Of a DNA stretch of 63,361 bases, positions 10,388-48,865 are shown one piece after another. The notes below the pieces were generated by a model, which worked only from the letters and a program-made list of their open reading frames with translations, did no database searches and had not been told where the DNA came from. This DNA comes from a virus (taxonomy: Duplodnaviria; Caudoviricetes): IMG/VR virus record IMGVR_UViG_3300027974_000039, positions 1-63,361 of that record, one strand, 5' to 3'. The translations under genes were made by a program, and so were the position numbers. The stretch's first letter is position 1. Each line of letters opens with the position of its first letter.

Positions 10388-10843
10388 ATGTCAAGACAAA
10401 TGCTAGTACCACTAAAACTGTTAGCTTTGTCAGCAGACCCAGAGTTTGGACAGGTTGGCGAAATTTATATAAACACAAACACCAAAAATTTGCGTGTTCA
10501 TAATGGAACAACATGGATAGAACTTACTCCACCAAGTACTGACCCAACTCCATTTTATATGCATACCCATACTTTTGATGGTGATGTACATACAATTGAC
10601 ATTCAAAATCAAATTGATTTTAAATCAATGTCAAACCCAAATACACCAAATTTAGTTCTACCACAAATAGTAGGTTATGATGGCGGAGATCCTAATAATA
10701 ATTTATCTAATCCTACATTTGTTAATGAAAATTTATTTGATGCAGGGTTTTTTGATGGATCAGAAGTAGTAATAGATACAGAAGCAGGGGGAGGCGGCTC
10801 AGCAGATTTTGATGCGCCATCGCTTGACGGAGGAGGATCATAA
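10388..10843 (+). CDS. Fibre-associated hypothetical protein
   Basis: GEIYINT...NGTTW motif; acidic DGG-rich C-terminus. Confidence 0.6.
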   Translation: MSRQMLVPLKLLALSADPEFGQVGEIYINTNTKNLRVHNGTTWIELTPPSTDPTPFYMHTHTFDGDVHTIDIQNQIDFKSMSNPNTPNLVLPQIVGYDGGDPNNNLSNPTFVNENLFDAGFFDGSEVVIDTEAGGGGSADFDAPSLDGGGS

Positions 10844-12387
10844 TGGCATTAAAAATTCAATTAAGAAGAGATATATCAGCAAACTGGACAGCAAACAATC
10901 CATTACTTTTGAATGGTGAAGTTGGTATTGAAACAGATACACTTAAGCTTAAAGTTGGTAATGGTACACAAAGATGGAATAGTTTGCCAGGATATATTTT
11001 AAATCCAGGGATGCCAGGAGGAGTTGCAACACTTGATAGCCTTGGCAAAGTGCCATTATCACAATTACCAGATCAAGTTTCGTTAGATGCAGAAGCTGCA
11101 ATAGCAGTTTCTAATGCAATAGGAGTACTAACAACTTCAAGTATTGCTGAAGGAATAAATAAATATTTTACAAACAATAGAGCAATTACTGCTGTAGAAG
11201 GTTTGTTTGATTCAAAAGGATCAGCTACACAAGCTTTATCATCTGCTAATGCTCACACAGCAGCAAAATTTACTGATGCAATTAATGAATCAACTGCAAT
11301 TGCAACTACTAAAGCAAATCAAGCACTTTCTTTAGCTAATCAAAATTCAGAACAATTTACAAATACAGCAATTAATCTTCTTACAACATCTGATATAGAA
11401 GAAGGCTCAAGACTTTATTTTACTACGCCAAGAGTAGAAAATATTGTTGGCCCACTTATTTCACAAACAAGATCATATGTAGATCAAGAAGTTACTGAAG
11501 CTAAAACATATGTAGATTCCGCTTTAACAAATTTTACTGCACCATCTGCAATTTCATCAACATCTGAATTGCCAGAAGGATCTAATTTATACTTTACTAA
11601 TTCAAGAGCAATTACTGCAACAGCTGCTGTAAGAACAGCGCAACTAGGTGCAGCACTTGGAGCAGTAGATGATTTAAGAACTGAAATTCAAAATGATTTA
11701 ACTAATTATGTACCATTATCTGATATTAATGTTTCTGGAGGAGTAGCTGGTTTAGATTCAAATACTAAAATTCAAGATAATGTAATACCATCTACAATTG
11801 CAAGAACCTCAGATATAACAGCTGCTATAGCTAACGTTGTAGCTGCAGCACCAGCCTCGTTTGACACACTTAAAGAAATTTCTGATTATATTGCTGCAGA
11901 CCAAACAGCATCTTCTGCTATAACAACTTCGCTTGGAACAAAATTAAATATAACTACGGCAGCATCAACTTATGCACCTAAAATTTCTCCAACATTTACT
12001 GGTACTGTTACAATGCCATCAGGAGCAATAATACCTGGTTATGCTACAACAGTTAACTTAACAACAGCTCTTACAGAAGCAAAAACATATACCGATACGG
12101 CTGTAAACGGAATAAATAACTCTCTTGGAGATTATGCACTTATATCAGACAGAAATATTGCAGGTGGTTATGCAGGACTTGGTTCAGACAGCAAGATACT
12201 AGAGTCTGCAATTCCAACCGCAATAACAACATCAATTGCAGCAGCCGCAACTCTTGCAGCATCAAACATTAATGGAACTTACACTAACGGAAGTTCTTCT
12301 TCTAATATAAACAAAATTACATATGGCACAAACATTACCCCTCCTTCAAGTGGAAATGCTGCTGGAGATATTTACATCCAATACTAA
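10843..12387 (+). CDS. Fibre protein with Mtd_N-like N-terminal domain
   Basis: IQLRR...W...NP.L..GEVGIETDT.KLKVGNG...WNSL; three EG.N/R.YFT repeats; DTLKEI and SPTFTGT fibre repeats; GDIYIQY end. Confidence 0.8.
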   Translation: MALKIQLRRDISANWTANNPLLLNGEVGIETDTLKLKVGNGTQRWNSLPGYILNPGMPGGVATLDSLGKVPLSQLPDQVSLDAEAAIAVSNAIGVLTTSSIAEGINKYFTNNRAITAVEGLFDSKGSATQALSSANAHTAAKFTDAINESTAIATTKANQALSLANQNSEQFTNTAINLLTTSDIEEGSRLYFTTPRVENIVGPLISQTRSYVDQEVTEAKTYVDSALTNFTAPSAISSTSELPEGSNLYFTNSRAITATAAVRTAQLGAALGAVDDLRTEIQNDLTNYVPLSDINVSGGVAGLDSNTKIQDNVIPSTIARTSDITAAIANVVAAAPASFDTLKEISDYIAADQTASSAITTSLGTKLNITTAASTYAPKISPTFTGTVTMPSGAIIPGYATTVNLTTALTEAKTYTDTAVNGINNSLGDYALISDRNIAGGYAGLGSDSKILESAIPTAITTSIAAAATLAASNINGTYTNGSSSSNINKITYGTNITPPSSGNAAGDIYIQY

Positions 12388-12399
12388 AAGGAGCCTGAA

Positions 12400-15300
12400 A
12401 TGCCGCTAAACATTTTTGATGGTTCTAATTGGAACCCACTCAAAAAAATACAAATTCATGATGGTTCATCATGGAATGAATCAAAGTCGGCATTTATATG
12501 GAATGGATCTGAATGGAAATCATTACTAGATTTAAAACCAAAAAATACATCTTTACCAACATTATCTATACAAGGTAACGCATTTTTTTATTCTGCACAA
12601 GAAACAGTTATATCAACCAATGGGCAATGGGAAAATTCACCTACATCATTTGAGTATCAATGGCAAAAAGCTGCTTATCCTACATCTAATTGGTCAAATA
12701 TACTTGACAAAACATCTAGTACTTTATTTTTAAATGAAGATGAATGGGATTTAAATCAATCTTTAAAGTATGTTGGATATGCTGTTAGATGCAAAGTTAC
12801 AGCAATAAATTCTGCTGGAAAAAATTCTGAAGATGTTTACACACTTTCTAGCCCAGTAATTGCGCCAGCTCCATTAGGAGAAATTAGCGTAAATGTAGTT
12901 TCAAACGGAATTGTCGAATTTACTTGGCAAAAAGTAAAAGGCGCCAATGATTACTATATGCAATATCAAGGACCCCAAGTTCCATTTACTGAAATTATGA
13001 GCATGGTAAATAATACAGATGCTTCAAAGGGAGTATATTCTATACAAGGAACAACATGTAAATTTACTATTGATACTGGTTCAGCAGCTGGAACACTTGG
13101 AATTTTAATAAATCCAATGAATACATCAAATGCTTCTGGTATGTCATTAAGTGGATATGGTAGAAATGCATCAGTAATGGATCTAAAACCAATTAAAGCT
13201 ACAGTAACAGCAACAATGACATCGTTTAGTTGGGGCGGAAGACTAAGTTGGTCTACAAATTTAATACAACAAACTGGCTGGACAATATATAATGAAGGAC
13301 AGCTATACGCAGGATCATTCATGAATGACCCACTAGCAACGTCTTATGATATAAGTGAACTTGGTGTAGGCGGATCAAAATTTGGAGCATTTACAGTACA
13401 AATTACTGGAACAGCACCTAGATATACAGAAACTTCATGGACTTCTTCTCCATCTCTATCTATTGAATATCCAACAGTTCCATTGCCAGTTAATGAAGGT
13501 GCTCCAACAGTTTCTTTAAATGGAAGAACAGTAACTTCAACAAATGGTACATGGACAAATCAAAATTCTATCTATAATTATCTTATTGAATGGTATTCTA
13601 ATGGAGTACCAATGACGTTTGGTGTTGGACAATCAGTAGATTTTAGTACTAACACATCTTATGATAATACTCAAATATCATCTTCTGTTCAAATTTTAAC
13701 TACTGATTTAAGATTGACAGAAAAAATATATAGCAGCAATTCTGTAACAATGCTACCTTCAGCTGCACTTTGTGATACTGCAGCAAAATGTTTAACTCCA
13801 GCATGTCAAGCTTGTGTACGTACATACAACATAAATACAAATGTTGCTACTAGCGTTTGTCCATCTGGAACAATGATTCAACAAGTTTGTATAACTCCAG
13901 GAGTTTGTGACAATAGAACTACAGATGTTGGTTGTGTACCAGTAGGAACAGAATGGTATTGTACTGAATCATATAATGGCGGAGGAATTGGCAATTGTGG
14001 ATATACCTTATCTTCATTTAATAATTCTGGGTCTGGTTCTGGATATTCAAGATCATGTGTTGCTGGTGGTCCATATCCAGCATGTGGATCTACTGGTCCT
14101 GCTACTTCAGTAACTTATTATATTGGATCTTCTGGATGTGATTTTCAAAATGGCACATATTACATGCCTCCATCAGTAAGCGGTCCATTTACTAATGCAA
14201 CTATGCCTGGAGATTATGATAGCATTGGAAGTAGAACTTTTTCTAAATTTGTATATAGAGCAACATCAGCAGAAGCATTAGCAGCAGTACAACAAGCAGC
14301 TTGTACGCCAGCAACTCCACCAGCAACTCCACCAGCAACTCCACCAACAACAGTTATTTGTCAAAATGGAGTTAATTGTAATGAAGCAGCTTGTCAAACT
14401 TGTGGACCATCAAGTTATACTAGTACCAGACCATCATCTGCTTGTCCATCTGGTATAACAAACACTTATGTCTGTTATACTCCAGGCTCTTGTGACAATA
14501 TAACTACAGATACTACTTGTGTAGCACCAACAAGTATTTGGTACTGCACCGAAAGCTATAATGGTGGTGGGGTCGGCAACTGCGGATATACAACATCAGC
14601 ATTTGATAATTCTGCATCTGGATCTGGATACTCACGTTCTTGCAATACTACTGGATACATATCTTGTGGATCTACCAATCCTTCAACTCCGCCTGCTACC
14701 CCACCTTCAACTCCACCAGTCGTAGATTGTACTTCATGTTCCCCAACACAAAGTTATGATAGCACCAGACCAAACGCAGCTTGTCCTTCTGGAACAGAAA
14801 ATTATCATGTTTGTTGGACTCCAGGAAATTGTGAAAATATAATTACAGCAACTGGTTGCGTACCTGTTGCAACTCCACCAGCAACTCCACCTTCAACTCC
14901 ACCAGTCGTAGATTGTAGTTCATGTTCTCCAACACAAAGTTATTCAAGCACAAGACCAGTAGAAACTTACATCTGTCCTTCTGGAATAGAAAACACATAT
15001 GTTTGCTGGACTCCGTCAGGTTGTCCAAATATAGTTACAAGCACTGGCTGTGTTCCAGCATCCACACCACCAGCAACTCCGCCTGCTACTCCACCTGCAA
15101 CCCCACCTACTTACGATTGTAATACATGTAATAGTTATGGCGGAGCTTGTGGAACTTATGGAAATGGAACTTGGTGTATAACACCAGGATCTTGTCCAAA
15201 TATATGTCAAGGCGATCATCCAGATTATTTTGCTCCACCGTTCTTCCCACCGAGCTTCTTTGCTCCACCGTTCTTCCCACCGAGCTTCTTTGCTCCACCC

Positions 15301-15828
15301 ATGTTCTGGTTTGCTCCACCGTTCTTCCCACCGAGCTTCTTTGCTCCACCAGGATTTAAGGGCAAGTGTCTATCACCAGACTCAGTAATATTTACTAATA
15401 TTGGTTGGGTAAAAGCAAAAGACATTAAGCCTGGAGATAATATTATTACAATTAATGGAAATGATATTGACATTGAATCCGTAACTTTAAACAAAACATC
15501 TAAACCGCTCCCAACAAATGTTGAATTTTCAAATTCACAAGTTGTTTCAGTAGAAACAAAGCTTTCAACATTAATAGGATTTAATTACAGAGGAAAAGAT
15601 TACTCAATTACTCAGCCAATATTTGTAAAAACCCCAGAAGGAATTACTTATAAAAATGCTGGAGATATCAAAGTTGGAGACGCAATAATTAGCGTTGATT
15701 CTCAAGGAGAAATTTCTGAAATTATAGTAGATTCAATTCAAATTGATGATTTAGAGTCTACAGTTTATGATATTAGAACTTCACCAGAACCTTGGTTTAT
15801 TGTAAATTCAACTATAGCTATAGCTTAA
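12400..15828 (+). CDS. Large adhesin/fibre protein: Ig-like domains, Cys-rich repeats, TPPA linkers, PPFF repeats, C-terminal Hint domain
   Basis: P.N...P...G.W...YQW Ig-like motifs; repeated CPSG/TPG.C modules; Hint from Cys990 (CLSPDSVIFT..GW..AKDIKPGD ... VYDI). Confidence 0.8.
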   Translation: MPLNIFDGSNWNPLKKIQIHDGSSWNESKSAFIWNGSEWKSLLDLKPKNTSLPTLSIQGNAFFYSAQETVISTNGQWENSPTSFEYQWQKAAYPTSNWSNILDKTSSTLFLNEDEWDLNQSLKYVGYAVRCKVTAINSAGKNSEDVYTLSSPVIAPAPLGEISVNVVSNGIVEFTWQKVKGANDYYMQYQGPQVPFTEIMSMVNNTDASKGVYSIQGTTCKFTIDTGSAAGTLGILINPMNTSNASGMSLSGYGRNASVMDLKPIKATVTATMTSFSWGGRLSWSTNLIQQTGWTIYNEGQLYAGSFMNDPLATSYDISELGVGGSKFGAFTVQITGTAPRYTETSWTSSPSLSIEYPTVPLPVNEGAPTVSLNGRTVTSTNGTWTNQNSIYNYLIEWYSNGVPMTFGVGQSVDFSTNTSYDNTQISSSVQILTTDLRLTEKIYSSNSVTMLPSAALCDTAAKCLTPACQACVRTYNINTNVATSVCPSGTMIQQVCITPGVCDNRTTDVGCVPVGTEWYCTESYNGGGIGNCGYTLSSFNNSGSGSGYSRSCVAGGPYPACGSTGPATSVTYYIGSSGCDFQNGTYYMPPSVSGPFTNATMPGDYDSIGSRTFSKFVYRATSAEALAAVQQAACTPATPPATPPATPPTTVICQNGVNCNEAACQTCGPSSYTSTRPSSACPSGITNTYVCYTPGSCDNITTDTTCVAPTSIWYCTESYNGGGVGNCGYTTSAFDNSASGSGYSRSCNTTGYISCGSTNPSTPPATPPSTPPVVDCTSCSPTQSYDSTRPNAACPSGTENYHVCWTPGNCENIITATGCVPVATPPATPPSTPPVVDCSSCSPTQSYSSTRPVETYICPSGIENTYVCWTPSGCPNIVTSTGCVPASTPPATPPATPPATPPTYDCNTCNSYGGACGTYGNGTWCITPGSCPNICQGDHPDYFAPPFFPPSFFAPPFFPPSFFAPPMFWFAPPFFPPSFFAPPGFKGKCLSPDSVIFTNIGWVKAKDIKPGDNIITINGNDIDIESVTLNKTSKPLPTNVEFSNSQVVSVETKLSTLIGFNYRGKDYSITQPIFVKTPEGITYKNAGDIKVGDAIISVDSQGEISEIIVDSIQIDDLESTVYDIRTSPEPWFIVNSTIAIA
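15226..15357 (+). repeat. Pro/Phe coding tandem repeat (PPFF and PPSFFA units), copy 1
   Basis: CCACCGTTCTTC and CCACCGAGCTTCTTTGCT units. Confidence 0.95.
15564..15665 (+). repeat. 102-bp exact direct repeat, copy 1 (within Hint domain)
   Basis: Identical to 22587-22688 by manual comparison. Confidence 0.9.
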
Positions 15829-19090: not shown

Positions 19091-21502
19091 ATGTCAACAG
19101 TAAGAATTCAAGTACGTAGAGGTTTATCTTCAGAATGGACCGCAGCAAATCCAGTATTGGCTGCAGGTGAAATGGGTGTTGAAACAAACACAAACAAATT
19201 TAAATTTGGTAATGGAACAGATGCATGGACTGCTCTTTCCTATGCGGCTTCAGATGCTGCAGCAATTGGTGAAATTTCCCAAGATGCTATCAATCAAGCA
19301 CTATCAGTAGGAGCAGGATTAACAAAGACTTATAATGATGGCGCAAATACAATTACTGTAACTGTAGATACAGATGTAGTTTCAACTAAAACATTTGCTA
19401 TTGCAGAAGCAACATCAAAAGCAGCCGCAGCACAAGCAGCAGCAGCATCCTATACAGATACTGCAGTTAGTGGAATAAATAACTCACTTACAGATTATTT
19501 AGAGGTTGCAGATAGAGGAGTAGCCAATGGAGTTGCTTCATTAAATAATTTAGGTAAGGTCCCAGAGGCACAATTAAATTTACAATCACTTTCAACAAAC
19601 GTAATTACTAGTGGTAACGTAACAGCAGAAAATGTAACAGTAAATGCTAATTTAATTGTTAATGGTACAACAACAACATTAAATACTCAAAATGTTTCTA
19701 TAGAAGATACACTTCTATATATTGCTGAAAATAATAATTCAAGCTCATTAGATTTAGGCTTTGTAGCTGGACATAACACTGGTGTATATAACCATACAGG
19801 ACTAGTAAGAGATGCTTCTGATAATAAATGGAAGCTTTTCAAAGATGTTACAGACGAACCAACAACAACAATAAATTTTGCTCAAGCTAATTTAGATAAT
19901 TTAGCATTATTTAACTTAGATTCAAATGCAATTCAGGCAGTTTCAATTACAGCAACTGGAACCGCAGCATTGCCAAATAGTTCAATTACAACCGCAAATA
20001 TTCAAAGCCAAGCAGTTACAGCAGAGAAGCTTGCAACAGATTCAGTTGAAACAGCAAAAATTAAAAATGGTGCCGTTACTGGAGCAAAATTAGAAGATAT
20101 GACAGTTACAGCAGCTAAGCTTGGAGCTTATGCAGTTACTAGCGGTAAAATTGAAGATGGTTCAGTTATTACAGGAAAGCTTGGAGCAGCATCAGTTACA
20201 GAAGATAAAATTGCAACAAATGCAATTACTGAACCTAAAATTGCAGCAGGTGCAGTTGTTGAAACAAAACTTGCATCAGGATCAGTAACATTAGCAAAGC
20301 TTGCAAGCGCTTCAGTTGATTCATCAAAGCTTGCAGCAGGATCAGTAACTTCTGCTAAAATTGCAGACAATTCAATTGTATTAGCTCACATGACAGATAA
20401 CTCTGTTGGAACTGTTGAAATTGTTGACTCAGCAATTACTGAGGCAAAACTTGCCGCAGCAGCAGTTGGCTCTACTAAAATTGCAACAGGCGCTGTATCA
20501 AATGCACATATTGCAGCGGAAGCAGCAATTGCAACATCAAAGATCTCAGGTCTTGATACAGCACTTGGATTACGGGCCCCACTTGCTTCACCAACATTTA
20601 CAGGAACAGTAGTTCTTCCAAGTACAACATCAATTGGAAATGTTTCCTCAACAGAGCTTGGATACGTAGATGGAGTTACATCTCCTATACAGACACAGCT
20701 TGCAGCAGGTACAACTGCTCTTGCAAATCACGAAGCAGATACAACAAACATTCACGGAATTTCAGATACTTCACTTCTAGCAACTACAGCAAATGTTGCT
20801 ACTGCTAAATCAGAAGCTATTACAGCAGCAGGTACTGCAGCAGATACAAAGGTATCTACAGCAGTGGCAGCACTTACAAAGTCTTCAGTAGGCCTTGCAA
20901 ATGTTGATAATACAGCCGATACAGCAAAGCCAGTATCTACAGCACAGGCTACAGCAATAGCAACTGCTAAATCAGAAGCAATTGCATCTGCAACAGCATC
21001 AGTCACAGCAGTTATAAATGGTGCACCAGCAGCATTTGATACACTTAAAGAAATTGCAGATTATATTGCAACAGATCAAAGTGCTGGTTCAGCATTAACT
21101 GCATCAGTTGCAACTAAAGCTCCTCTTGCCTCACCAACATTTACTGGAACAGTAACAGTTGGAGCAGCAGGGATTGTATTCTCTGATGGAACACAAACAC
21201 AAGCAGCAGTTCCTTCTATAACAACATTTGCATCATCTTTTGCAGCATCAGCAACACTTGCAGCAGGAGAACAAGATAAATTTGTACCAGTAGATGGAGC
21301 AGTAGTTATTACTCTTCCTGCAACAGGATATTCAACTGGACAGTCAATTGATTTCTACCAGGCTTCAGGCACAGGAGCATCATTTGCTTCAACAAACTCC
21401 GTAGTAGGAACACCAGGACTTAAGTTTAGAACTACAAACTCAGTTGTAACAGCAATGAAAACTTCAAGCGGATGGTTGGTCTTTGGAGACCTATCAGCGT
21501 AA
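19091..21502 (+). CDS. Fibre protein with Mtd_N-like domain and decapeptide repeats
   Basis: IQVRRG...W...NPVLAAGEMGVET; many V/I-T-x-x-K-I/L-A 10-aa repeats; APLASPTFTGT repeats. Confidence 0.8.
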   Translation: MSTVRIQVRRGLSSEWTAANPVLAAGEMGVETNTNKFKFGNGTDAWTALSYAASDAAAIGEISQDAINQALSVGAGLTKTYNDGANTITVTVDTDVVSTKTFAIAEATSKAAAAQAAAASYTDTAVSGINNSLTDYLEVADRGVANGVASLNNLGKVPEAQLNLQSLSTNVITSGNVTAENVTVNANLIVNGTTTTLNTQNVSIEDTLLYIAENNNSSSLDLGFVAGHNTGVYNHTGLVRDASDNKWKLFKDVTDEPTTTINFAQANLDNLALFNLDSNAIQAVSITATGTAALPNSSITTANIQSQAVTAEKLATDSVETAKIKNGAVTGAKLEDMTVTAAKLGAYAVTSGKIEDGSVITGKLGAASVTEDKIATNAITEPKIAAGAVVETKLASGSVTLAKLASASVDSSKLAAGSVTSAKIADNSIVLAHMTDNSVGTVEIVDSAITEAKLAAAAVGSTKIATGAVSNAHIAAEAAIATSKISGLDTALGLRAPLASPTFTGTVVLPSTTSIGNVSSTELGYVDGVTSPIQTQLAAGTTALANHEADTTNIHGISDTSLLATTANVATAKSEAITAAGTAADTKVSTAVAALTKSSVGLANVDNTADTAKPVSTAQATAIATAKSEAIASATASVTAVINGAPAAFDTLKEIADYIATDQSAGSALTASVATKAPLASPTFTGTVTVGAAGIVFSDGTQTQAAVPSITTFASSFAASATLAAGEQDKFVPVDGAVVITLPATGYSTGQSIDFYQASGTGASFASTNSVVGTPGLKFRTTNSVVTAMKTSSGWLVFGDLSA

Positions 21503-21525: not shown

Positions 21526-22851
21526 ATGTCAAAACAAGCAGGTAGAATGAGCCAAGGAGCTAATGACTTCTTAGCTCCGTATGCTCCAACAATTGGTACA
21601 GCAACAAATGTAGGCTCAAGTAGAGCTTTCAATAATGGACGGGCAGATGTAACTTTTACAGCTGACTCAAGAAATGCTGCAGATTCATTTACTGTTACCT
21701 CTTCTCCAGGAAACTTTCTTGGAACTGGGGCATCATCTCCAATTTCAGTTACAGGCCTTCAGTCAGGAGTTGCTTACACATTTACAGTAACCGCAACAAA
21801 TGCAGCAGGAACATCAGCTCCATCTGAAGCATCTAATTCTGTTACAGCTACAACTGTACCTCAAGATCCACAAAGTGCAACTGCAACTGCAGGAATTAAT
21901 CAAAACACTATTTCTTGGACAGCTCCAAATAATGGTGGATCAGCAATAACAAATTATTATATTGTTGGAAATGATGGAACATCTGGTAACACAGCATCTA
22001 CATCAATAGTAATTGCAGATACTGCTAATACTTCTCAATATTATAATATTTATGCAGATAACGCTAATGGTAGATCAATTGCTTCAGGTAATACAGCCAC
22101 TATTACAACTCTAGCACCGTTCTTCCCACCGTTCTTCCCACCGTTCTTCCCACCGAGCTTCTTTGCTCCACCGTTCTTCCCACCGTTCTTCCCACCGAGC
22201 TTCTTTGCTCCACCGTTCTTCCCACCGTTCTTCCCACCGAGCTTCTTTGCTCCACCGAGCTTTTTTGCTCCACCGTTCTTCCCACCGTTCTTCCCACCGA
22301 GCTTCTTTGCCCCACCAAGCTTCTTTGCTCCACCAGGATTCTGGTTTGCCCCACCAAGCTTCTTTGCTCCACCAGGATTTAAGGGCAAGTGTTTATCACC
22401 AGACTCAGTAATATTTACTGCAGATGGATGGGTACAAGCTAAAAATATTAAAGTTGGAGATGCAATATTAACTATTGACGGAAGTCATATTAATCTTGAA
22501 TCAATAACTTCAAATAAAATTTCTGAATCACTTCCAGAAAATGTTAAATTTACAGATGGTCAAGTTGTTTCTGTTACAGAAAAAACTTCAACATTAATAG
22601 GATTTAATTACAGAGGAAAAGATTACTCAATTACTCAGCCAATATTTGTAAAAACCCCAGAAGGAATTACTTATAAAAATGCTGGAGAAATTGAAATAGG
22701 AGAAATAATCCTACATGTTGATTCTGAAGGATCAGTATCAGAGGTTCCAGTAACTTCAATAGAAAAGGATGAAGCAGAATCAACTGTTTATGATGTTAGA
22801 ACATCTCCACAGCCATGGTTTATAGTTAATTCCTTTATAGCAATAGCATAA
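21526..22851 (+). CDS. Fibronectin type III protein with PPFF repeats and C-terminal Hint domain
   Basis: GL.SGVAYTFTVTATNAAGTS and SWTAP.NGGSAITNY FN3 motifs; Hint from Cys289. Confidence 0.85.
   Translation: MSKQAGRMSQGANDFLAPYAPTIGTATNVGSSRAFNNGRADVTFTADSRNAADSFTVTSSPGNFLGTGASSPISVTGLQSGVAYTFTVTATNAAGTSAPSEASNSVTATTVPQDPQSATATAGINQNTISWTAPNNGGSAITNYYIVGNDGTSGNTASTSIVIADTANTSQYYNIYADNANGRSIASGNTATITTLAPFFPPFFPPFFPPSFFAPPFFPPFFPPSFFAPPFFPPFFPPSFFAPPSFFAPPFFPPFFPPSFFAPPSFFAPPGFWFAPPSFFAPPGFKGKCLSPDSVIFTADGWVQAKNIKVGDAILTIDGSHINLESITSNKISESLPENVKFTDGQVVSVTEKTSTLIGFNYRGKDYSITQPIFVKTPEGITYKNAGEIEIGEIILHVDSEGSVSEVPVTSIEKDEAESTVYDVRTSPQPWFIVNSFIAIA
22114..22380 (+). repeat. Pro/Phe coding tandem repeat (PPFF and PPSFFA units), copy 2
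   Basis: Same 12-nt and 18-nt units as 15226-15357, in a longer array. Confidence 0.95.
22587..22688 (+). repeat. 102-bp exact direct repeat, copy 2 (within Hint domain)
   Basis: Identical to 15564-15665. Confidence 0.9.
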
Positions 22852-40228: not shown

Positions 40229-43200
40229 TTGGCAGATCAAAATATAGTTACCAACATAACTGCGACGGCTAATTTTAGTAGCCTAACAGCGCAGTTACAA
40301 GCGGTGACCTCTCAACTTCTAAAACTTCAAGCTACAACAATTGGTTTAAATAAAAATTTAACTAGCCAAGTTGGAGTAATGAATCGTCAGTTTGACGAAA
40401 CCATGCGCTCCACTGGCCAGTTTGCCAGACACTTTGTAACACTAACTTCAGACGTATCTAAGTTCGGACAGAACCTAGATAGCGGAAGAATGAAGCTAGG
40501 TCAATATTTTCAAACATGGCAAGGACACACAAGAAAAACTAGCACATTAGTTAAAGAGCTAGCTAAACAGCAGGTAATGCTTGAGAATGCAATTATCCAA
40601 CCACTAGGTAAAAATGCTCAAGGATTAATGCAATATAACGTAATGGTTCAATCTGGACTAGATGCAACAAAGAATAAATCTGCACTATTAAGACAAGAAC
40701 TATCTATCATGAATAAGGTCATGAATGATGGGGCGGGCCAATTAATTAACTGGGGTAAAAATACACAGTGGGCTGGTAGACAGCTTACAGTAGGACTTAC
40801 TGTACCATTAGCAGCATTTGGTATGGCTGCAGCAAAAGCATTTAGACAAGCAGACGAAGAGCTTGTTAGACTTACAAAGGTTTACGGCGGGTTAACAGCA
40901 ACATCATCATCAGATTTATTAAAAGTAAGAAAAGATGTAGCTGCTTTATCTAGAGAATTAGCATCTGGCTTAGGTGCAAACTTTACAGAGACTATTGGAT
41001 TAGCAGCTGACATTGCTGCAACTGGAAAAGAAGGAAATGCACTTCTAGAATCAACTAGACAAGCAACAAGACTTTCAGTTCTTGGTGAAGTTGATAGGCA
41101 AGAGGCAATGAAAGCAACACTATCAATTCAGACAGCTTTTGGACAAAACACAGATCAGTTAGCACAATCAATTGACTTCCTTAACGCAGTTGAAAACCAG
41201 ACATCAACGAGCCTTGCAGATTTAGTAGAAGCAATTCCTAAAGCTGGACCAGTTGTAAAAGCATTAGGTGGAGACGTACAAGATTTAGCACTTTATTTAA
41301 CAGCAATGCGAGAAGGCGGAATCAATGCTTCAGAAGGAGCAAATGCATTAAAATCTGCATTAGCATCTATCATTAATCCAACTAAGGTTGCAAAGGGTAT
41401 GTTCATGGATCTTGGTATAGATCTTGGCGGTATAGTTGAAAAAAATGCTGGAAACTTAACTGGAACAATAATGGCATTAAAAGATTCACTAGATACATTA
41501 CAACCACTAGAAAGAGCAAGAGCAATTGAGCAGCTATTTGGTAAATTCCAATTTGCAAGAATTAATGCATTATTTGAGAATCTTGGGAAACAAGGAAGCC
41601 AGACACTAAAAGTATTAGATTTGATGAAAGCTAGCACATCAGATTTAGCTAGTATATCTGATCGAGAATTAAAAACAATGACTGAATCTGCCTCTGGTAA
41701 ATATAAGAGAGCACTTGAATCTGTAAAAGCAGACCTAGCAGTAATTGGAGAACAATTCTTAAAGGTTGGAACATTTGTATTAAATGCAATTGATGGAATT
41801 GTTAAATTTATTGGGCACCTTCCAGGACCAATTAAAGCAGTACTAGGATTTATTGGAAGCCTTACAGCAATTGCTGGACCTATTATTATGTTAACTGGTG
41901 TGCTTGCTAACTTCTTTGGATATATTATTAAGGGTATTTTTGCTTTAAAGAATATTGGTAAAGGTGGAACAGGATTTAAACTTTTAACTCCAGAATTGAT
42001 GGCAGCAGCAGAAGCTGGCAAAAGTGTAGAGCAATCATTCTATAGCGATACAAAGGCAGCAGCCACATTCTCTGATGCAGTATTAACATTAGCAGCTTCA
42101 TTTGAAAAACTAAAGCAAAGCGCAATGTCTTCCACTATTGCAACTAATAATAGTATGTCTACAGTTGCTGGTAGCCCAGTTATGCGTGGCGGAGGAAGAA
42201 TTGTAGATAAAGAAAACCCTCTTGTTGGAAGACCTTATTCAAGAGATATGTCTCATGTTATTCCAACTGGATCAAAGACTGCAGAACAAAGAGCAAATGA
42301 AACAATATTTTCTACTGTTCCTGGCCCTAAGCCAGTAAACTTAAGACTTTCAAATTCACCACAAACATACATGAGTGAAGATCTTCCAAGAATTCCTGGA
42401 GTAACTTCAGTCAATGGAGTATCTAACGGTATAGTTGCAGCGGAAGCAGCAAAATGGCATTCTATGACAGCAGCACTTGCTATGCAATCAAAGGCAGAAA
42501 TAGCATTACTTAAAACTGAAGTAGCAGCAACTGGAACAGTAACTGCCTCACTAGCAGATTCCTATCAAGCATTACTTCCACAAATGACAAAAATAACTAC
42601 TTTAGCTGCAGAAGAAACAGCACTAATAGTTAATCAATTACAAGCTGGCAAGATTACAGTAGAAGCAGCAAGGGCAAAGATATTTGCATTGAATGCACAA
42701 GTAGAAGCTATGATGGCTCAAACTGCACAAGGAGTTGCTACAGCTCAAGCAAGAAGCATTAGTTTAACTACAGTTCCATTAACTAGCCAGCCAGTTGTTA
42801 GCGCAGCTGGTAAATCAAATATGAAAGAGCTTTTTCATAAATCAGAAACTTCTAAATTAGTAGATTCAATAGCACGTGGCCTTGGCGTTAGAACTTCTGG
42901 AGCTGGATATAGCATTCAAACAACAAAGCCTAGATTTAATACTGGTGGAAAGATTGAAAACTTTGGTCAAAACAAAACTCGGGTAAGCGGTCCTGCATCT
43001 GTAACATACGATGATCGAATGGGCAGCGTTCCAGTAGGTGGATATGTATTAAACCAAGCAGCATCTATGGATCCAGCAAATGCTCAATTAGTAGCAGCAG
43101 CTCCATCAACTCATAAAAATAGTGGTGGTAATATAACTGCACTCCTTACACCAAAAGAAACAGTATTTGGTCCAGGCATTCAAGATAATCCAGAACTTTT

Positions 43201-46200
43201 TGCCGCAGTAGATGCAGCAAATAATGGAAGGCCAGTTGCAGGACATATGGGTGGCGGAAGAATTAGTCTTTCAAAATCTAATTACGGAGTAATGGGCCCA
43301 GCAGTAATGGGTAAAATTTTAGCACAGCTATTTAAGCGCAATCCAAAACTTTCAAGAGAGATGCTACTAGGAAGAGACATGTCTTTGTCTGGCGCAGAAG
43401 CTAGAGCATATCAAGAAAGTGTATTTGGTTCTGCAGTTAGATCATCATCTAAAGAATTAAGTAGACAATATTATTATGTAGGAAATTGGGGCGGAAGGCT
43501 AAGATCAAGTGTTAATACAGCTCTTTCCCATGGTGCTGCTAAAAAAGCTGATGTTGTAAGCGATTTAATGCATGGATCATCACAACAAGCACTTCCTTCA
43601 CTTACAAGATTTTTGCAAGTAAATAAAATATCTGCAGATAAAATACAATTGTTAACTGATCGTGCTAGAGCAAATATAGTTTCTGGTTTATCTGGAACTG
43701 GTAAAATTGGAGAAGCAGAGTGGTCAAGACTTCAACACAAAGAGTATCTTGCTATAGCAAAAGAACTTCGATTAAGAAAAGAATACTTAGAAAGTTTAAA
43801 TGTTCCAGGACAAAGAAGAGCTCATTCAACTGATCCAGCTGCAAGAGGAATTCAAGCAGAAACTGCTTTAAATCCATATGGCAAAACAGATTTAGAAAAA
43901 CTTATTGCCGCAAATGATGCAAATGGAACAAGATACATGGGGTCATACCGTAATTATGGAATAGAAAAAATTAATGGAGAACCAACAGCGCTAGCGCATA
44001 TGATGCCTAAATTCAATTATGGTGGCAAAATAAGACCAGGAAAGTCTAATTACGGAAAGCCTATGTTCCTTGGAATGCCTAGAAGAATTAAGGATATAGA
44101 GCAACAAAGACAATCTAGACTTCACATGGAAGAAATTAGTGCTGGTCTTAAGAACAGCAGATTTGCAGATGTGCCACCAACAGATTTTGGTAAATTAATA
44201 ACACCTACTTCTGGAAGAAGTTTCCCAGTTCCAGGTATTGGTGGATTATATGAAAAACCAGATGGCACTAGAGTATTTGTTAAGCCAGTAATGGATGAGA
44301 CAGCAGCGTTAGCCGAACAACGTGCAACAATCATTGCAAGAAATGCACATGGATTACATTCACCAATGCAATCAATTAGGACCATGATAGACCCAACTGA
44401 TCCAGCTGGTAAAAGAAAACTTCTTGTTTTAGAGTCCCCATACGATAAAGCATTTGCACAATCTTCTGGAGAATTTAGCAGGAAAGATTATTTTAAACAA
44501 TTAGTAGCCGCTAATTTAAGAGGAGATAAAGATTTAGGGGCAGGCAATCTATATGGTGGGACACTTGCAGATGTAGGAACTGCTGGCGTATTTAAGATGG
44601 CTTCTGGCAAGAGAACATATGAAACAAATATGCCTTCAATGTCAGATCAAGCACGTATTAATTTGCTTGGAGTAAAAGGTGGAGCCAAGAAGTTCTTTGC
44701 AGAATCTACTTTAAATATACCAAAGGGAATGACACCTAAGCAATATCATGAAACAATGATTGCTGAGATAGACACTGTTCTTCCAGCTTTAAAGAAAACA
44801 ATATCAGAATTTAAATTAAATGCAGAAGAATTAGCTATATATAATGCAATGATTAAAAGACTTGAAGATGGCAGAAATGTTAATTGGCAAGAATTTCATG
44901 GCATCCATTCTGCAGTAAAACCTGCAGCGGCTAAAGCGCTTACCCCTGCAGCGTTAAAGAAATTAAAAGACGAAGTAGATTTAAGAATAAGACAAAAAGG
45001 ACATGCAATATCTTTAAGCGATAATTCATTTAAAACGCCTCTTAATGGATTTAATGGAGGCGGAGGAATTGGTAATGTCTTAAAGGGATTAGCTATGAGA
45101 AGAATTGGTGCAGGCTTTGGGCCAACAGGTGCACCTAAACCTAGTACATATGAATCAGCTCCATGGGGAGTTAACTCACTATCTATTGAAATGGCAAATA
45201 CATTATTTGCAAATTCTGGATTAAGAAAGCATACACAAAAACTTCTTTACGATAAGTTTGCTGCTGCCTTGGCAAAAGAAAAACCTTATGGATACGTTAA
45301 AGATGCACAAGGTTCTTTAAAGAATGCACTTGAGCCAGCATCACTAGATGCAGTAATTAGACAAGCTGCTAGCGATTTAGTTGGCGATAGAAATCTATTA
45401 AGACAACTATCTCCAATAGATAAAGACATTCTTAGAAACAAATATTTAAATTGGGATTCAAGAAAAGATACCCCAATGACTGCAGAGCTAAAGAAAAAGA
45501 TATTTGGCATTGATGGTAAAAGAGAAATGGGTGGACCAGTATCTCCAGGACAAAATTATGTTGTTGGAGAAAAAGGCCCAGAAATATTCAGTCCTTCACA
45601 AAGCGGAAATATTATTCCAGGATATGAAGTTGGCGGAGTTATTAGATATGGTAAAGATTCATATGGAGTAAGTGGTAATCCAGCAAAACGTGCAGCAGAA
45701 GCAGCAGCTAAAGCAGAACGTATTGCAGCTTCTCAAGCTGCAGCAACTGCAAACCCAGAATATAAAGAAGGACCGCTTTCTGTAGGTAAAACTACAATAG
45801 TTGGAAATGGCGGAGTAAGAACAAATGCTTATGGCCTGCAGGGGTCTTTCCCGTATGCTCCAGGATTAAAGCTTCCATTAAGAGGATTTAATGCAGCAAT
45901 AGATTCAGCTATATTATCAATTTCAAGTAATTTAAAGGCAGCATCAAATAGATTAATTACTAGCACAAGAATGATTGGCGATCAGATAAACTCATCTTTA
46001 AGAACATTATCTGATGGAGCAAAAAGATTTGGAACATCAATTACAGCATCAACTAAAACACTTGTTTCTTCATATAAGCATGGTGGATCTGAAATATTAA
46101 AATATGGTGCCCCTGGAGCGTTTGTTGGAACTAGAGAAGATCGTAACGCTAGAATGCTTGGTTCATTTAAAGCTAATGCTGCATATTCAACTGCAGCAAT

Positions 46201-48865
46201 AATGCATCCACTTCAATATTTAAAGCAAAAGGGTGTATTGGGAATGGATCCTAATAAGCCAGCTCTTGGAACTGGTGCCCTGGGCAGTACTGTTGGAATG
46301 ATGGGTGGAATGGCAGCTGGAACTGCAATCGGTGCAAAATTTGGAGGACAACAAGGCGCAATGATGGGAAGCATGGCTGGAATGATGGCTGGTCCAGCTT
46401 TAATGTCAGGTGCTGGTAAAGCAGTTTCAATGATGGCAGCCAGATCAGTTACCATGGGAGTTGCATCAGCTGGACTTGGAGCAACAGCAGCTGGAATTGC
46501 AGGCTTAGTAGCACCACTTGCTGCAGTAACAGCTGCAGTTTATGTTGGATACAAAGCGTGGAAACATTATAAAGAAGGACAAACTCTTAATATATCTACA
46601 TTTGGTCTTACTGCAGAAGCAGCTAAAAAAGCTAATTTAAGATTTACAGACTTTGGTTCAAAAATAAAAGATACTATTCAGGATTCAAAAGATTTGGCTG
46701 CTGCAAATAAACTTGTATATGAAAGCATGAAAGATGGCGGAACTCCATTTCAGATGACAATTGCAGAATATAAAAAACTAAAGGTTGAAGTAAAAGAAAC
46801 ATTTGGCGAGCAGATTAAAGCATTAGATAGACAACCGTCTACTAAAGTTCCAGATGCAGTCCGAAGAATTAAAGAACAGTTAATAGCAGCTGGAATGTCT
46901 GCTGAAGAAGCAACTAAAAAAGTATATACAATGCTTCAGCTTTCAAATAAAAAAGATCAATCAATTACTGCAACAATGGGTAACGCAGACTTTAAAGCAA
47001 TTACAGATCCTCAAAGCGCTGCAGTTTCTGCAGTCACAAGTTTTGGTAAAGACACAAAAGATCAAGGAAATAAAGAAAAAGCTGCATCATTAAATACAGC
47101 TCTCATGGCAACTGAAACTGGAATTAACGATTTAATTGCAAAGAGAGAAAGACTTGTAGCAAAAGATTTGACTGGAAAGACTAAGTCATTAACATATGCA
47201 GAAGCCGAAAAACAAATGATAGATCAGATAAATAAATCTAAAGAAGCTGGCACAGTAATTACTCAGGGCACAATTGATGAAATGGCAAAAACAAATCCAG
47301 AAGTTAAAAAAATGATTAATGGATCTGATACAGTTGTAAGCGTATGGCAAAAAATTAGATTGCAGGCGCAAGGATTTACTGGTGATCTTTCTAAATTAAA
47401 TTCATCTCAAACAAAACTAATTGCTGATTCTTTTGCTGCTATAGCAACATCTGTTGTAGCAACTAATTCAAGTAAAGATGGACTTCTTTCAAAACAATAC
47501 AGTGCGCTTGGAAAATTAGAAGACAAGATTAAATCTTATACTAAAGCATTAAAGGGTCAAACAGTTTCTCAGCAGATATCTGATAGGGATAAACTGTCTG
47601 CACTTAATAAGCAAATTGAGGCAAATAATAAACTTGCTGAGGCCAGAAAGAAAGCACTTACTGCCGCACAAGCAGATGCTGATCTTGGCAGAGAAATTGA
47701 AAAGACTAGACTTGCAATGCAAAATGCTTCAGCTACTGGAGATACAGTACAAGCACAATCATTGAGAATTGATTTAGAATCATTAACATCTCAGCAACAA
47801 ACAGAGTCTCAAACAAAAGCTATTGATAAAGCAACTGAAGCTGCTAATAAGCCGCTACAGGATGCTATTAAGGCTATGAATGATAAGCAGCAAGGTCTTG
47901 CAGACAGTGCAGCATTAGCTGGAGAAAGTTTAGACAAGGTCCGCACTAAATATGATGAGCAAAAAGCAGCTATAGATAAAGTAAATAATTCAATGACTGC
48001 ACTTTATGGAAATGCAGCAGCAGCTGGTAAATCAATAGAAGAATATGTTAAGACAAATAAAGAAGCTGCAGCAGGATTAGTAGCAGCAACAGAAGCAGCT
48101 ACTGGTACAAAGATGGAAAGATATACTGAAACAAAAGCTTATGAGGGTGGACAACTAGTAACTAAAAAAGTTCCAGTTTCACCACAAGCAAATGCACTAT
48201 CAATACTAGCAAAAGCAGGAGCGGGATCTGCTGTTAATGACGCACTTGCAAACAGCATTAAGGGTGGAGCAACACTTAAAGATGTTGTAAATGCAGTAAA
48301 GGGTGGCGTTGCAGGAATAAAAAGAAAAGATATTGCAGTATCTGGAGATTACTCTAAAGCAATGGAAGAAAAAGAATTTAATGGAGTTAAGACAAAAGTT
48401 TTAAATGCACAAGCTAGAAGATCAATTGCACAATCACAAGACTTACAAATAGGAGAAACTTTTATTTGGAATGGTCAAAGATATGGGAAAAGCCAAAAAG
48501 ATGGCAACATTGTTTTTATGGGTAAAGCTGCAACTGGAGTACAAGGCGGAGCGGCAGGAATGTACCTTGTTGGAGAAAAAGGACCAGAATTTGTTCACTT
48601 AAAGAGTCGTGCTAATATTATGCCAAACGATGTTATGAATACATTAGCTGCAGCATCTCCAAGATATAATTTTGATAAAGCTCAATATAATATGAAAGAC
48701 GGAACTACTTCAGGTAATTCATATGTTGTAAATCAAAATATTTACGCATCTGAAGGAATGGATGTTGAGGCATTATCAAATATGATTGTTAAAAAAGCAG
48801 AAATTGTTATTGGACAAAAGGCCAAAGTTAATGTTAAAATGGTTGGACAGGGGAAGAATATATAA
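40229..48865 (+). CDS. Tape measure protein with inserted cargo domains
   Basis: 2878 aa; TMP core (G..LT.GLT.PL, EGANALKS, ..LFGK), hydrophobic segments, coiled coils, two GEKGPE motifs; follows the chaperone genes. Confidence 0.93.
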   Translation: MADQNIVTNITATANFSSLTAQLQAVTSQLLKLQATTIGLNKNLTSQVGVMNRQFDETMRSTGQFARHFVTLTSDVSKFGQNLDSGRMKLGQYFQTWQGHTRKTSTLVKELAKQQVMLENAIIQPLGKNAQGLMQYNVMVQSGLDATKNKSALLRQELSIMNKVMNDGAGQLINWGKNTQWAGRQLTVGLTVPLAAFGMAAAKAFRQADEELVRLTKVYGGLTATSSSDLLKVRKDVAALSRELASGLGANFTETIGLAADIAATGKEGNALLESTRQATRLSVLGEVDRQEAMKATLSIQTAFGQNTDQLAQSIDFLNAVENQTSTSLADLVEAIPKAGPVVKALGGDVQDLALYLTAMREGGINASEGANALKSALASIINPTKVAKGMFMDLGIDLGGIVEKNAGNLTGTIMALKDSLDTLQPLERARAIEQLFGKFQFARINALFENLGKQGSQTLKVLDLMKASTSDLASISDRELKTMTESASGKYKRALESVKADLAVIGEQFLKVGTFVLNAIDGIVKFIGHLPGPIKAVLGFIGSLTAIAGPIIMLTGVLANFFGYIIKGIFALKNIGKGGTGFKLLTPELMAAAEAGKSVEQSFYSDTKAAATFSDAVLTLAASFEKLKQSAMSSTIATNNSMSTVAGSPVMRGGGRIVDKENPLVGRPYSRDMSHVIPTGSKTAEQRANETIFSTVPGPKPVNLRLSNSPQTYMSEDLPRIPGVTSVNGVSNGIVAAEAAKWHSMTAALAMQSKAEIALLKTEVAATGTVTASLADSYQALLPQMTKITTLAAEETALIVNQLQAGKITVEAARAKIFALNAQVEAMMAQTAQGVATAQARSISLTTVPLTSQPVVSAAGKSNMKELFHKSETSKLVDSIARGLGVRTSGAGYSIQTTKPRFNTGGKIENFGQNKTRVSGPASVTYDDRMGSVPVGGYVLNQAASMDPANAQLVAAAPSTHKNSGGNITALLTPKETVFGPGIQDNPELFAAVDAANNGRPVAGHMGGGRISLSKSNYGVMGPAVMGKILAQLFKRNPKLSREMLLGRDMSLSGAEARAYQESVFGSAVRSSSKELSRQYYYVGNWGGRLRSSVNTALSHGAAKKADVVSDLMHGSSQQALPSLTRFLQVNKISADKIQLLTDRARANIVSGLSGTGKIGEAEWSRLQHKEYLAIAKELRLRKEYLESLNVPGQRRAHSTDPAARGIQAETALNPYGKTDLEKLIAANDANGTRYMGSYRNYGIEKINGEPTALAHMMPKFNYGGKIRPGKSNYGKPMFLGMPRRIKDIEQQRQSRLHMEEISAGLKNSRFADVPPTDFGKLITPTSGRSFPVPGIGGLYEKPDGTRVFVKPVMDETAALAEQRATIIARNAHGLHSPMQSIRTMIDPTDPAGKRKLLVLESPYDKAFAQSSGEFSRKDYFKQLVAANLRGDKDLGAGNLYGGTLADVGTAGVFKMASGKRTYETNMPSMSDQARINLLGVKGGAKKFFAESTLNIPKGMTPKQYHETMIAEIDTVLPALKKTISEFKLNAEELAIYNAMIKRLEDGRNVNWQEFHGIHSAVKPAAAKALTPAALKKLKDEVDLRIRQKGHAISLSDNSFKTPLNGFNGGGGIGNVLKGLAMRRIGAGFGPTGAPKPSTYESAPWGVNSLSIEMANTLFANSGLRKHTQKLLYDKFAAALAKEKPYGYVKDAQGSLKNALEPASLDAVIRQAASDLVGDRNLLRQLSPIDKDILRNKYLNWDSRKDTPMTAELKKKIFGIDGKREMGGPVSPGQNYVVGEKGPEIFSPSQSGNIIPGYEVGGVIRYGKDSYGVSGNPAKRAAEAAAKAERIAASQAAATANPEYKEGPLSVGKTTIVGNGGVRTNAYGLQGSFPYAPGLKLPLRGFNAAIDSAILSISSNLKAASNRLITSTRMIGDQINSSLRTLSDGAKRFGTSITASTKTLVSSYKHGGSEILKYGAPGAFVGTREDRNARMLGSFKANAAYSTAAIMHPLQYLKQKGVLGMDPNKPALGTGALGSTVGMMGGMAAGTAIGAKFGGQQGAMMGSMAGMMAGPALMSGAGKAVSMMAARSVTMGVASAGLGATAAGIAGLVAPLAAVTAAVYVGYKAWKHYKEGQTLNISTFGLTAEAAKKANLRFTDFGSKIKDTIQDSKDLAAANKLVYESMKDGGTPFQMTIAEYKKLKVEVKETFGEQIKALDRQPSTKVPDAVRRIKEQLIAAGMSAEEATKKVYTMLQLSNKKDQSITATMGNADFKAITDPQSAAVSAVTSFGKDTKDQGNKEKAASLNTALMATETGINDLIAKRERLVAKDLTGKTKSLTYAEAEKQMIDQINKSKEAGTVITQGTIDEMAKTNPEVKKMINGSDTVVSVWQKIRLQAQGFTGDLSKLNSSQTKLIADSFAAIATSVVATNSSKDGLLSKQYSALGKLEDKIKSYTKALKGQTVSQQISDRDKLSALNKQIEANNKLAEARKKALTAAQADADLGREIEKTRLAMQNASATGDTVQAQSLRIDLESLTSQQQTESQTKAIDKATEAANKPLQDAIKAMNDKQQGLADSAALAGESLDKVRTKYDEQKAAIDKVNNSMTALYGNAAAAGKSIEEYVKTNKEAAAGLVAATEAATGTKMERYTETKAYEGGQLVTKKVPVSPQANALSILAKAGAGSAVNDALANSIKGGATLKDVVNAVKGGVAGIKRKDIAVSGDYSKAMEEKEFNGVKTKVLNAQARRSIAQSQDLQIGETFIWNGQRYGKSQKDGNIVFMGKAATGVQGGAAGMYLVGEKGPEFVHLKSRANIMPNDVMNTLAAASPRYNFDKAQYNMKDGTTSGNSYVVNQNIYASEGMDVEALSNMIVKKAEIVIGQKAKVNVKMVGQGKNI

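Follow-up and report, generated by a model that had tools for sequence, protein, structure and literature searches.

We consider it probable that the tape measure protein (TMP) of IMG/VR virus record IMGVR_UViG_3300027974_000039 is built, in its middle third, from separately folding modules on swappable joint peptides, with one kinase-like module (C) that would enter the host and with cuts, if there are any, at elements resembling the mapped cleavage site of phage T5. The whole record, 63,361 bases with an estimated completeness of 59% and ~32–42% G+C, was analysed and is referred to here as the window. The region in question, residues 903–1830 of the TMP, would form an array of four modules (A–D) strung on a joint peptide and closed by an element E. 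It is at the joints that modules are exchanged, lost or gained between lineages, and module C adopts in the structure model a kinase fold with a conserved catalytic set. The features of the gene are as follows (aa, amino acid residues of the TMP).

40229..48865 (+): TMP gene, 2878 aa, TTG start, a single open reading frame (ORF)
40955..41542 (+): PhageMin_Tail domain PF10145, aa 243–438, E 1.4e-27, 97.3 bits (cut-off 33.2)
42935 (+): joint 1, FNTGG, aa 903, opening module A
42935..43243 (+): module A, aa 903–1005, ~100 aa between the first two motifs
43244..43288 (+): joint 2, HMGGG-x5-KSNYG, aa 1006–1020
43244..44011 (+): module B, aa 1006–1261, with a predicted folded helical core at aa ~1086–1190
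44012..44056 (+): joint 3, FNYGG-x5-KSNYG, aa 1262–1276
44012..45049 (+): module C, aa 1262–1607
44168..44896 (+): predicted atypical kinase fold inside module C, aa ~1314–1556
45050..45064 (+): joint 4, FNGGG, aa 1608–1612
45050..45520 (+): module D, aa 1608–1764, with a predicted small helical core after an N-terminal stretch
45521..45595 (+): element E, REMGG...GEKGPE, aa 1765–1789, with GEKGPE at aa 1780 (nucleotide 45566)
45623..45667 (+): joint 6, YEVGG-x5-KDSYG, aa 1799–1813
48530..48598 (+): C-terminal GG...Y-x-VGEKGPE copy, aa 2768–2790, with GEKGPE at aa 2782 (nucleotide 48572)

The ORF at 40229–48865 is the TMP by Pfam, PHROGs and gene order, and its carrier is a large uncultured freshwater siphovirus. 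In addition to the PhageMin_Tail domain, nine TMP families of PHROGs match the N-terminal 600–870 residues of the ORF (best E 1.9e-116), and its start residue is the common start in relatives, as judged from the alignment consensus. Portal, head protease, capsid protein, a tube-like Ig protein and small chaperone-like ORFs lie upstream and minor tail proteins downstream, a gene order that matches the tail-module position expected for a TMP. A search of the GenBank phage collection gave no DNA matches, and protein matches there were confined to the N-terminal 21% of the TMP. The sequencing runs holding the array carry freshwater metagenome labels, and the full 3001-base stretch is spanned, with 40 and 90 differing letters, by contigs that come from sequencing runs of two other studies; the array is therefore real DNA and not an assembly chimera. 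A Gly/Ala/Met-rich hydrophobic stretch follows the array at 46256–46558 (+) (aa ~2010–2110), and another such stretch is found at aa ~530–590; both were recognized by eye in the translation and are likely membrane-inserting parts of the TMP.

All seven motifs on which an initial annotation had based its view of the gene are present at the coordinates it gave, in frame within this one ORF, and the inserts that it had put at roughly 240, 330 and 150 residues measure 241, 331 and 152 residues between motifs. The joint consensus is an aromatic residue followed by x-x-G-G, often continuing as x-[IV]-x3-K-x-N-Y-G. Shuffling of the protein sequence revealed that this recurrence is far from random, with the three copies of GG-x6-7-[SD][NS]YG and the two copies of GEKGPE each reached in 0 of 2000 shuffles and the six copies of [FYH]xxGG in 9 of 2000. 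Five of these six fall in aa 890–1830, the sixth being an outlying YKHGG at aa 1949, outside the array. Across 29 sequences, with identity down to 52%, the joints vary little or not at all in GG and NYG, and the G-E-K-G-P-E of element E is invariant. The DNA shared among the different joints of the gene amounts to only a few codons, which, together with the invariance of GG and NYG, indicates that the sameness of the joints is held at the protein level.

Relatives were collected by a search with aa 890–1830, which yielded 667 related proteins among 7999 scored candidates, and the best 120 of these were analysed. Module architectures, called by segment-wise BLAST over these 120, were A-CD in 46 relatives, --CD in 33, ABCD in 28, AB-D in nine, AB-- in three and -BCD in one (a dash marks a missing module). 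Module C is thus present in 108 of the 120 and absent from 12, and module D is absent from three, in which another cassette replaces C and D together. Break points were mapped with the whole TMP as query, so that the chosen cut points could not shape the outcome. Of 173 alignment ends within aa 881–1849, 139 fall in six joint windows, which together amount to 15.2% of the span and for which the nominal binomial p of 7e-81 overstates the independence of the counts because the relatives are kin. The ends cluster tightly, with 43 at aa 1010–1025 (joint 2), 53 at aa 1261–1276 (joint 3) and 31 at aa 1803–1816 plus a further 19 at 1819–1826 (joint 6), and with nine alignment starts at aa 1608–1612 (joint 4).

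The material that takes the place of the lost modules begins in the same manner. The 79 replacement segments form four sequence clusters of 55, 19, 3 and 2 members, and each of the 79 starts with x-x-G-G. The longer GG...[YF]G form is seen in 44 of them, and the remainder, which substitute module A, open with an F-[AN]-x-GG-IVPGTG variant. In one sequencing run, contigs agree with the window as far as base 42932 and go on from there with an F-A-K-G-G variant, representing a co-occurring relative that diverges exactly at joint 1. In the nine C-less relatives in which B is fused to D, two distinct junctions were observed, both within joints: five proteins have one hybrid joint, whereas the other four keep the entire joint 3 and then pass directly into D, making joint 3 the site of both kinds of C deletion. 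No joined form without a module was seen in contigs of four runs, a result that is uninformative since contigs drop rare variants. The alignment of relatives' TMPs that the initial annotation had proposed, to see whether inserts vary between conserved linkers, supports its idea that the linkers serve as swap points: among the best 120 of the 667 relatives, modules are replaced or deleted exactly at the joints.

Several relatives extend beyond this plan. The longer ones (P0020, P0028, P0057, P0064 and others; 3500–4112 aa) are extended by 600–1200 residues that lie after the coiled-coil part and before the C-terminal element and contain more x-x-G-G and GPGTGTSDSIPA...GEYV-type motifs. In two relatives, P0065 and P0079, precomputed annotation gives an OmpA-family domain (PF00691). 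Such extensions suggest that there is a second cassette site, left unoccupied in the window. Pfam searches of five whole relatives found PF10145 alone. The sole related locus found in a genome collection (L029:3245–11983) lies on a contig binned in an Acidimicrobiaceae metagenome-assembled genome and encodes a 2912-aa TMP with a kinase module that is 50% identical, where the same joints are absent on both sides of that module; it gives only a weak hint of the host, too little to name one.

A structure model of aa 903–1830 (928 residues) was built from a 29-sequence alignment and has a mean predicted local distance difference test score (pLDDT) of 52.6, with confident cores in B, C and D and values below 50 at every joint. 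In this model module C has the two lobes of a kinase fold. Every match shown in a Foldseek search of the PDB was a kinase, pseudokinase or kinase-homology domain (PAN3 best, E 4e-4; HipA, CtkA and others), and a second structure search, independent of Foldseek, returned HipA (8.2), the kinase 7wcf (7.9), CotH, CtkA and HipT (7.8 each) and, further down, PI4KII-alpha (6.8), MavQ (6.7), a Fam20-type kinase (6.5) and actin-fragmin kinase (6.4). The matches of this second search each align over 174–202 residues of model residues 390–655. An Atlas language-model search with module C gave leads to LepB_N, PI3_PI4_kinase and HipA_2 (scores 0.91–0.92), and a viral structure library gave weak matches to phage proteins named as PI3/4-kinases and to multidomain proteins fused to portal or ADP-ribosyltransferase (ART) domains.

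The candidate catalytic residues of module C are K1352, E1363, D1433/D1435, N1440 and D1448, with roles (ATP-binding Lys, helix-C Glu, D-x4-N and metal-binding Asp) assigned by spacing and order. The G-x-x-D-x4-N spacing is what we take to be that of HipA-type catalytic loops. All 114 sequences compared retain K1352, D1433, D1435, N1440 and D1448, at overall identities as low as 47%, and position 1363 is Glu in 106 of these and Gln in eight. Searches by sequence were silent, with nothing credible in Pfam for any segment and no match to aa 903–1830 among PDB sequences (both at E up to 10), and no matches at E up to 10 in a PDB profile search with a 12-sequence alignment of module C. By sequence, module C does not belong to HipA_C, CotH or PI3_PI4_kinase, and since no sequence link was found it is called kinase-fold here and filed under no named family. 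Taken together, these data point to an atypical protein-kinase-like enzyme whose structural class is that of HipA/CtkA/CotH/PI4K and whose activity is suggested by the fold and the invariant residues. When proteins of 190–606 aa were searched with module C, 20 matches were obtained, 17 of which lie on contigs of ≤3.2 kb and are therefore probably gene fragments.

Modules B and D were modelled jointly from a natural C-less relative (L023, ~90% identical) with a 33-sequence alignment, giving a pLDDT of 75–94 for the helical core of B and 62–83 for that of D over aa ~1652–1761. The N terminus of module D is a strongly conserved Gly-rich amphipathic stretch. Structure searches gave no fold match for either module, and no PHROGs family was found for B, C, D or five replacement cassettes. 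Module B matched only five of 1.84 billion representative proteins, all of 2297–3889 aa, and no stand-alone copy was seen among them. Module A contains two short elements of the GG...hydrophobic-(T/G)-P/G-x-E-x-V type that resemble, by eye, TMP C-terminal motifs, and it shows low-confidence strands in the structure model. The proposal in the initial annotation that the inserts are globular effectors is therefore partly borne out: every insert contains a folded core that is modelled with confidence, the joints being modelled as disordered, and a fold search of each insert supports an effector for module C, with its kinase fold and invariant catalytic residues, but gave no recognizable fold or family for B and D.

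The cassette that substitutes C and D in three of the 120 relatives (L025:11075–11959) is ~290 residues long. By eye, its R...S-x-S...E-x-E residue order recalls ADP-ribosyltransferases, and Atlas placed it in rows scoring 0.85–0.86, of whose members only 13–20% carry PF03496. Pfam found nothing credible on the five replacement cassettes and PHROGs was likewise silent; with the by-eye order and the weak Atlas leads alone, the ADP-ribosyltransferase reading of this cassette is not established.

The clearest link to TMP processing is found in element E. In phage T5 the TMP, pb2, is split after R1127, giving pb2* and pb2C; this sets apart a C-terminal piece with enzymatic function, which remains in the tail tip (main text of Linares et al. 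2023, PMC10038345). Placing the site from that text and the GenBank T5 sequence revealed AEGG...GEHGTE directly after R1127. The initial annotation had stated that F/Y-x-x-G-G and GE motifs occur near the processed C termini of TMPs, which holds for T5, the one phage for which it was checked. In a BLASTP comparison, aa 1765–1789 of element E align with T5 aa 1127–1151 with 11 of 25 residues identical (E 3e-5 for the single comparison) and R1765 on R1127, and element E has the complete T5-type order R-x-x-G-G...G-E-x-G-x-E. Element E is also matched by the TMP family phrog_1538 near the end of its profile. Aligned as it is with a mapped cut site, element E is a credible cut site itself. The C-terminal copy aligns more weakly with pb2 (9 of 26 identical, E 0.027); its GEKGPE lies 97 residues before the TMP end, and this second element thus sits ~100 residues before the C terminus, as the T5 element does. 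The short joints, by contrast, share only the first half of the T5-type element (GG-x3-PG/x-x-(N)Y, by eye) and lack the GExGPE half. At the position of the T5 P1 arginine the five short joints have F, H, F, F and Y, with R in element E alone, so that T5, with one element and one cut, differs from the window, with two full elements and five short joints lacking the arginine. If the chain were cut, this would most likely happen after R1765 and near aa 2770, in the two full T5-like elements, and not at every short joint, where cutting would be speculative.

During infection, the TMPs of long-tailed phages exit the tail, and they are present in few copies per virion, for which reason a catalytic cargo makes sense. 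In the mechanism that we favour, the array would leave the tail with the TMP and enter the host with or ahead of the DNA. The kinase would then modify a host protein or lipid early in infection, two substrate classes that the fold does not distinguish. Unless cut at the T5-like elements, the modules would act while tethered to the TMP, as has been proposed for the RNA polymerase of the Thermus phage P23-45 protein gp96, a 5,002-residue TMP fused to this virion enzyme, which in the authors' proposal remains joined to the pore-forming TMP (accessible text of Chaban et al. 2024, PMC10770324).

The same joints could belong to a polyprotein in which the TMP is cut at every joint during tail maturation or entry, freeing A–D as effectors. 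Their strict conservation and modelled disorder, the half element that they share by eye with the sequence directly after the T5 cut, and the alignment of element E with that cut are consistent with such a scheme, and the text of the Ur-lambda paper gives the T5 and lambda TMPs as cut in mature particles, these being the only two so known. However, the sole mapped TMP cleavage site carries precisely the GExGxE half that the short joints lack, and its P1 arginine is replaced in all five of them. No protease has been identified, the same paper describes the lambda site as unmapped and the catalysis of the cut as not known, and the P23-45 enzyme is proposed to work attached to its TMP. Release at every joint appears unlikely. 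A bolder form goes further and sees in the ruler a recombination-shuffled injection polyprotein, in which every joint would be a cut-down T5-type site, a tail-assembly protease would free the cassettes while still in the tube, and a varying set of enzymes (the HipA/CotH-like kinase here, other cassettes in relatives) would be fired in before the DNA so as to knock out host translation or defence, making it the phage counterpart, built into the tail, of polymorphic toxin systems; this we regard as doubtful. A stronger contender, though one that we rate at somewhat below an even chance, holds that the joints are structural or assembly elements (chain register, tube docking) rather than cut sites, that the modules remain tethered, and that swaps coincide with joints since only joint-keeping junctions assemble. 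This accounts equally well for the conservation and for the swap pattern. With so few codons shared, selection on the peptide explains the sameness of the joints better than recombination homology does, and P23-45 offers the precedent of a tethered enzyme. The joints are modelled without structure, a weak objection as a monomer model cannot show contacts between chains; the alignment of element E with a real cleavage site also speaks against it.

That the inserts are mere length spacers or envelope-penetration parts, with the kinase-like fold an inactive binding module, seems quite improbable. Modules B and D do lack an enzymatic signature, D opens with its conserved Gly-rich amphipathic stretch, and tail length is set by TMP length (established, and restated in the text of the Ur-lambda paper). 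Against this, five residues that would be expected to bind ATP/Mg and to act in catalysis are invariant in all 114 sequences, with overall identity as low as 47%. Nine relatives drop C cleanly and keep the rest, which indicates that C is not needed for the core ruler function. Pseudokinases usually lose ATP/Mg-binding and catalytic residues. A chance pattern or a chimeric metagenome assembly is refuted by the shuffle tests, by the 667 related proteins from many sources and by the contigs of two other studies that span the stretch, and has virtually no likelihood left.

The favoured reading, of separately folding modules on swappable joints with a kinase-like C that would enter the host, also has several points that weigh against it. 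The protein is known here from its gene alone, which bears on its presence in the virion, ejection, cutting and activity alike. No sequence method (Pfam, PHROGs, PDB sequences, PDB profile) links module C to a kinase; the kinase-fold scores are borderline, the best Z for unmatched models typically being 7–8; and the model is weak where it matters (mean pLDDT 52.6, with 42–61 in the catalytic-loop stretch). Modules B and D give no hint of enzymatic function. Folded domains of 250 residues, in at least three copies, would hardly fit the lumen of the tail tube, and the cargo would therefore have to travel unfolded. Finally, the best 120 of the 667 relatives are a biased sample, having come from a search with this very region, and the break-point counts are not independent events.

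The array extends two known kinds of protein, the enzyme-bearing TMPs and the polyvalent proteins. P23-45 gp96 is, like the TMP of the window, a giant TMP; it bears a functional enzyme, believed to come in with the TMP and to act at the very start of infection, but that enzyme is single and N-terminal, and the accessible text (PMC10770324) describes no repeated joint peptide, cassette array or kinase. The polyvalent proteins (Iyer et al. 2017, PMC5512222), encoded by phages and conjugative elements, likewise combine several unrelated domains in one polypeptide, including kinases and ADP-ribosyltransferases, with predicted DNA co-injection and processing, and some of their loci vary in a cassette-like way; the main text of that paper contains neither 'tape measure' nor 'tail tape'. 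Their kinases, as described there, form a truncated Ser/Thr/Tyr-kinase clade, in contrast to the HipA/CotH-like fold predicted here, and their processing is ascribed to zincin-like peptidase domains, none of which was found in the TMP of the window. Of the several activities typical of polyvalent proteins, one enzyme-like domain (C) was recognized in this TMP, B and D being without a fold match and the ADP-ribosyltransferase-like cassette weak. HipA/HipT toxins, Helicobacter pylori CtkA, Bacillus CotH, PI4KII-alpha and Legionella MavQ and LepB have no detectable sequence relation to module C (9–14% identity in the structural alignments), which sits in a virion-type TMP, unlike the free toxins or secreted kinases of the HipA/CtkA class. 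Compared by description, Sle1-type effectors (Nagakubo et al. 2026, PMC13277306, in the part accessible) also have a TMP-derived carrier with an exchangeable functional domain, which is packaged in a tail-like tube and ejected, but they belong to an actinobacterial contractile injection system rather than to a phage ruler and have one C-terminal functional domain. In the literature covered, largely without subscription journals, no description of kinases or joint-delimited cassette arrays in TMPs was found.

Elsewhere in the window, a 498-aa ORF at 1893–3389 (+) matches tryptophan halogenase PF04820 over its full length (E 5.4e-104), a flavin-dependent halogenase being an unusual auxiliary gene for a phage. 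ORFs of 514 and 803 aa, at 10843–12387 (+) and 19091–21502 (+), have at their N termini an Mtd_N domain (E 2e-12 and 1.5e-13, respectively), as in the major tropism determinant of the Bordetella phage, and are possible receptor-binding fibres. Weak PDZ matches were found near the C termini of a 1142-aa ORF at 12400–15828 (+) and a 441-aa ORF at 21526–22851 (+), the latter with an additional fn3 domain and a weak intein-splicing-like match. A 644-aa ORF at 6303–8237 (+), with a short match at aa 141–215 to the ribonucleotide reductase barrel and the B12-dependent ribonucleotide reductase insertion domain, may encode a divergent or partial ribonucleotide reductase.

TMPs are usually treated as rulers and channel formers, and enzymes within them are, to our knowledge, known only in isolated cases, namely cell-wall hydrolases and the P23-45 RNA polymerase. 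The present finding concerns a whole lineage of freshwater phages, with 667 related proteins found, in which the ruler has exchangeable modules, including a conserved predicted kinase. Because its motif recurs up to seven times within a single chain, the protein provides a direct handle on the cut specificity of TMPs, and the joints may serve as natural splice points where cargo could be engineered into the tails of phages. For the biology of these phages, the array would make the tail lumen a general route of protein delivery and a site of rapid arms-race evolution.

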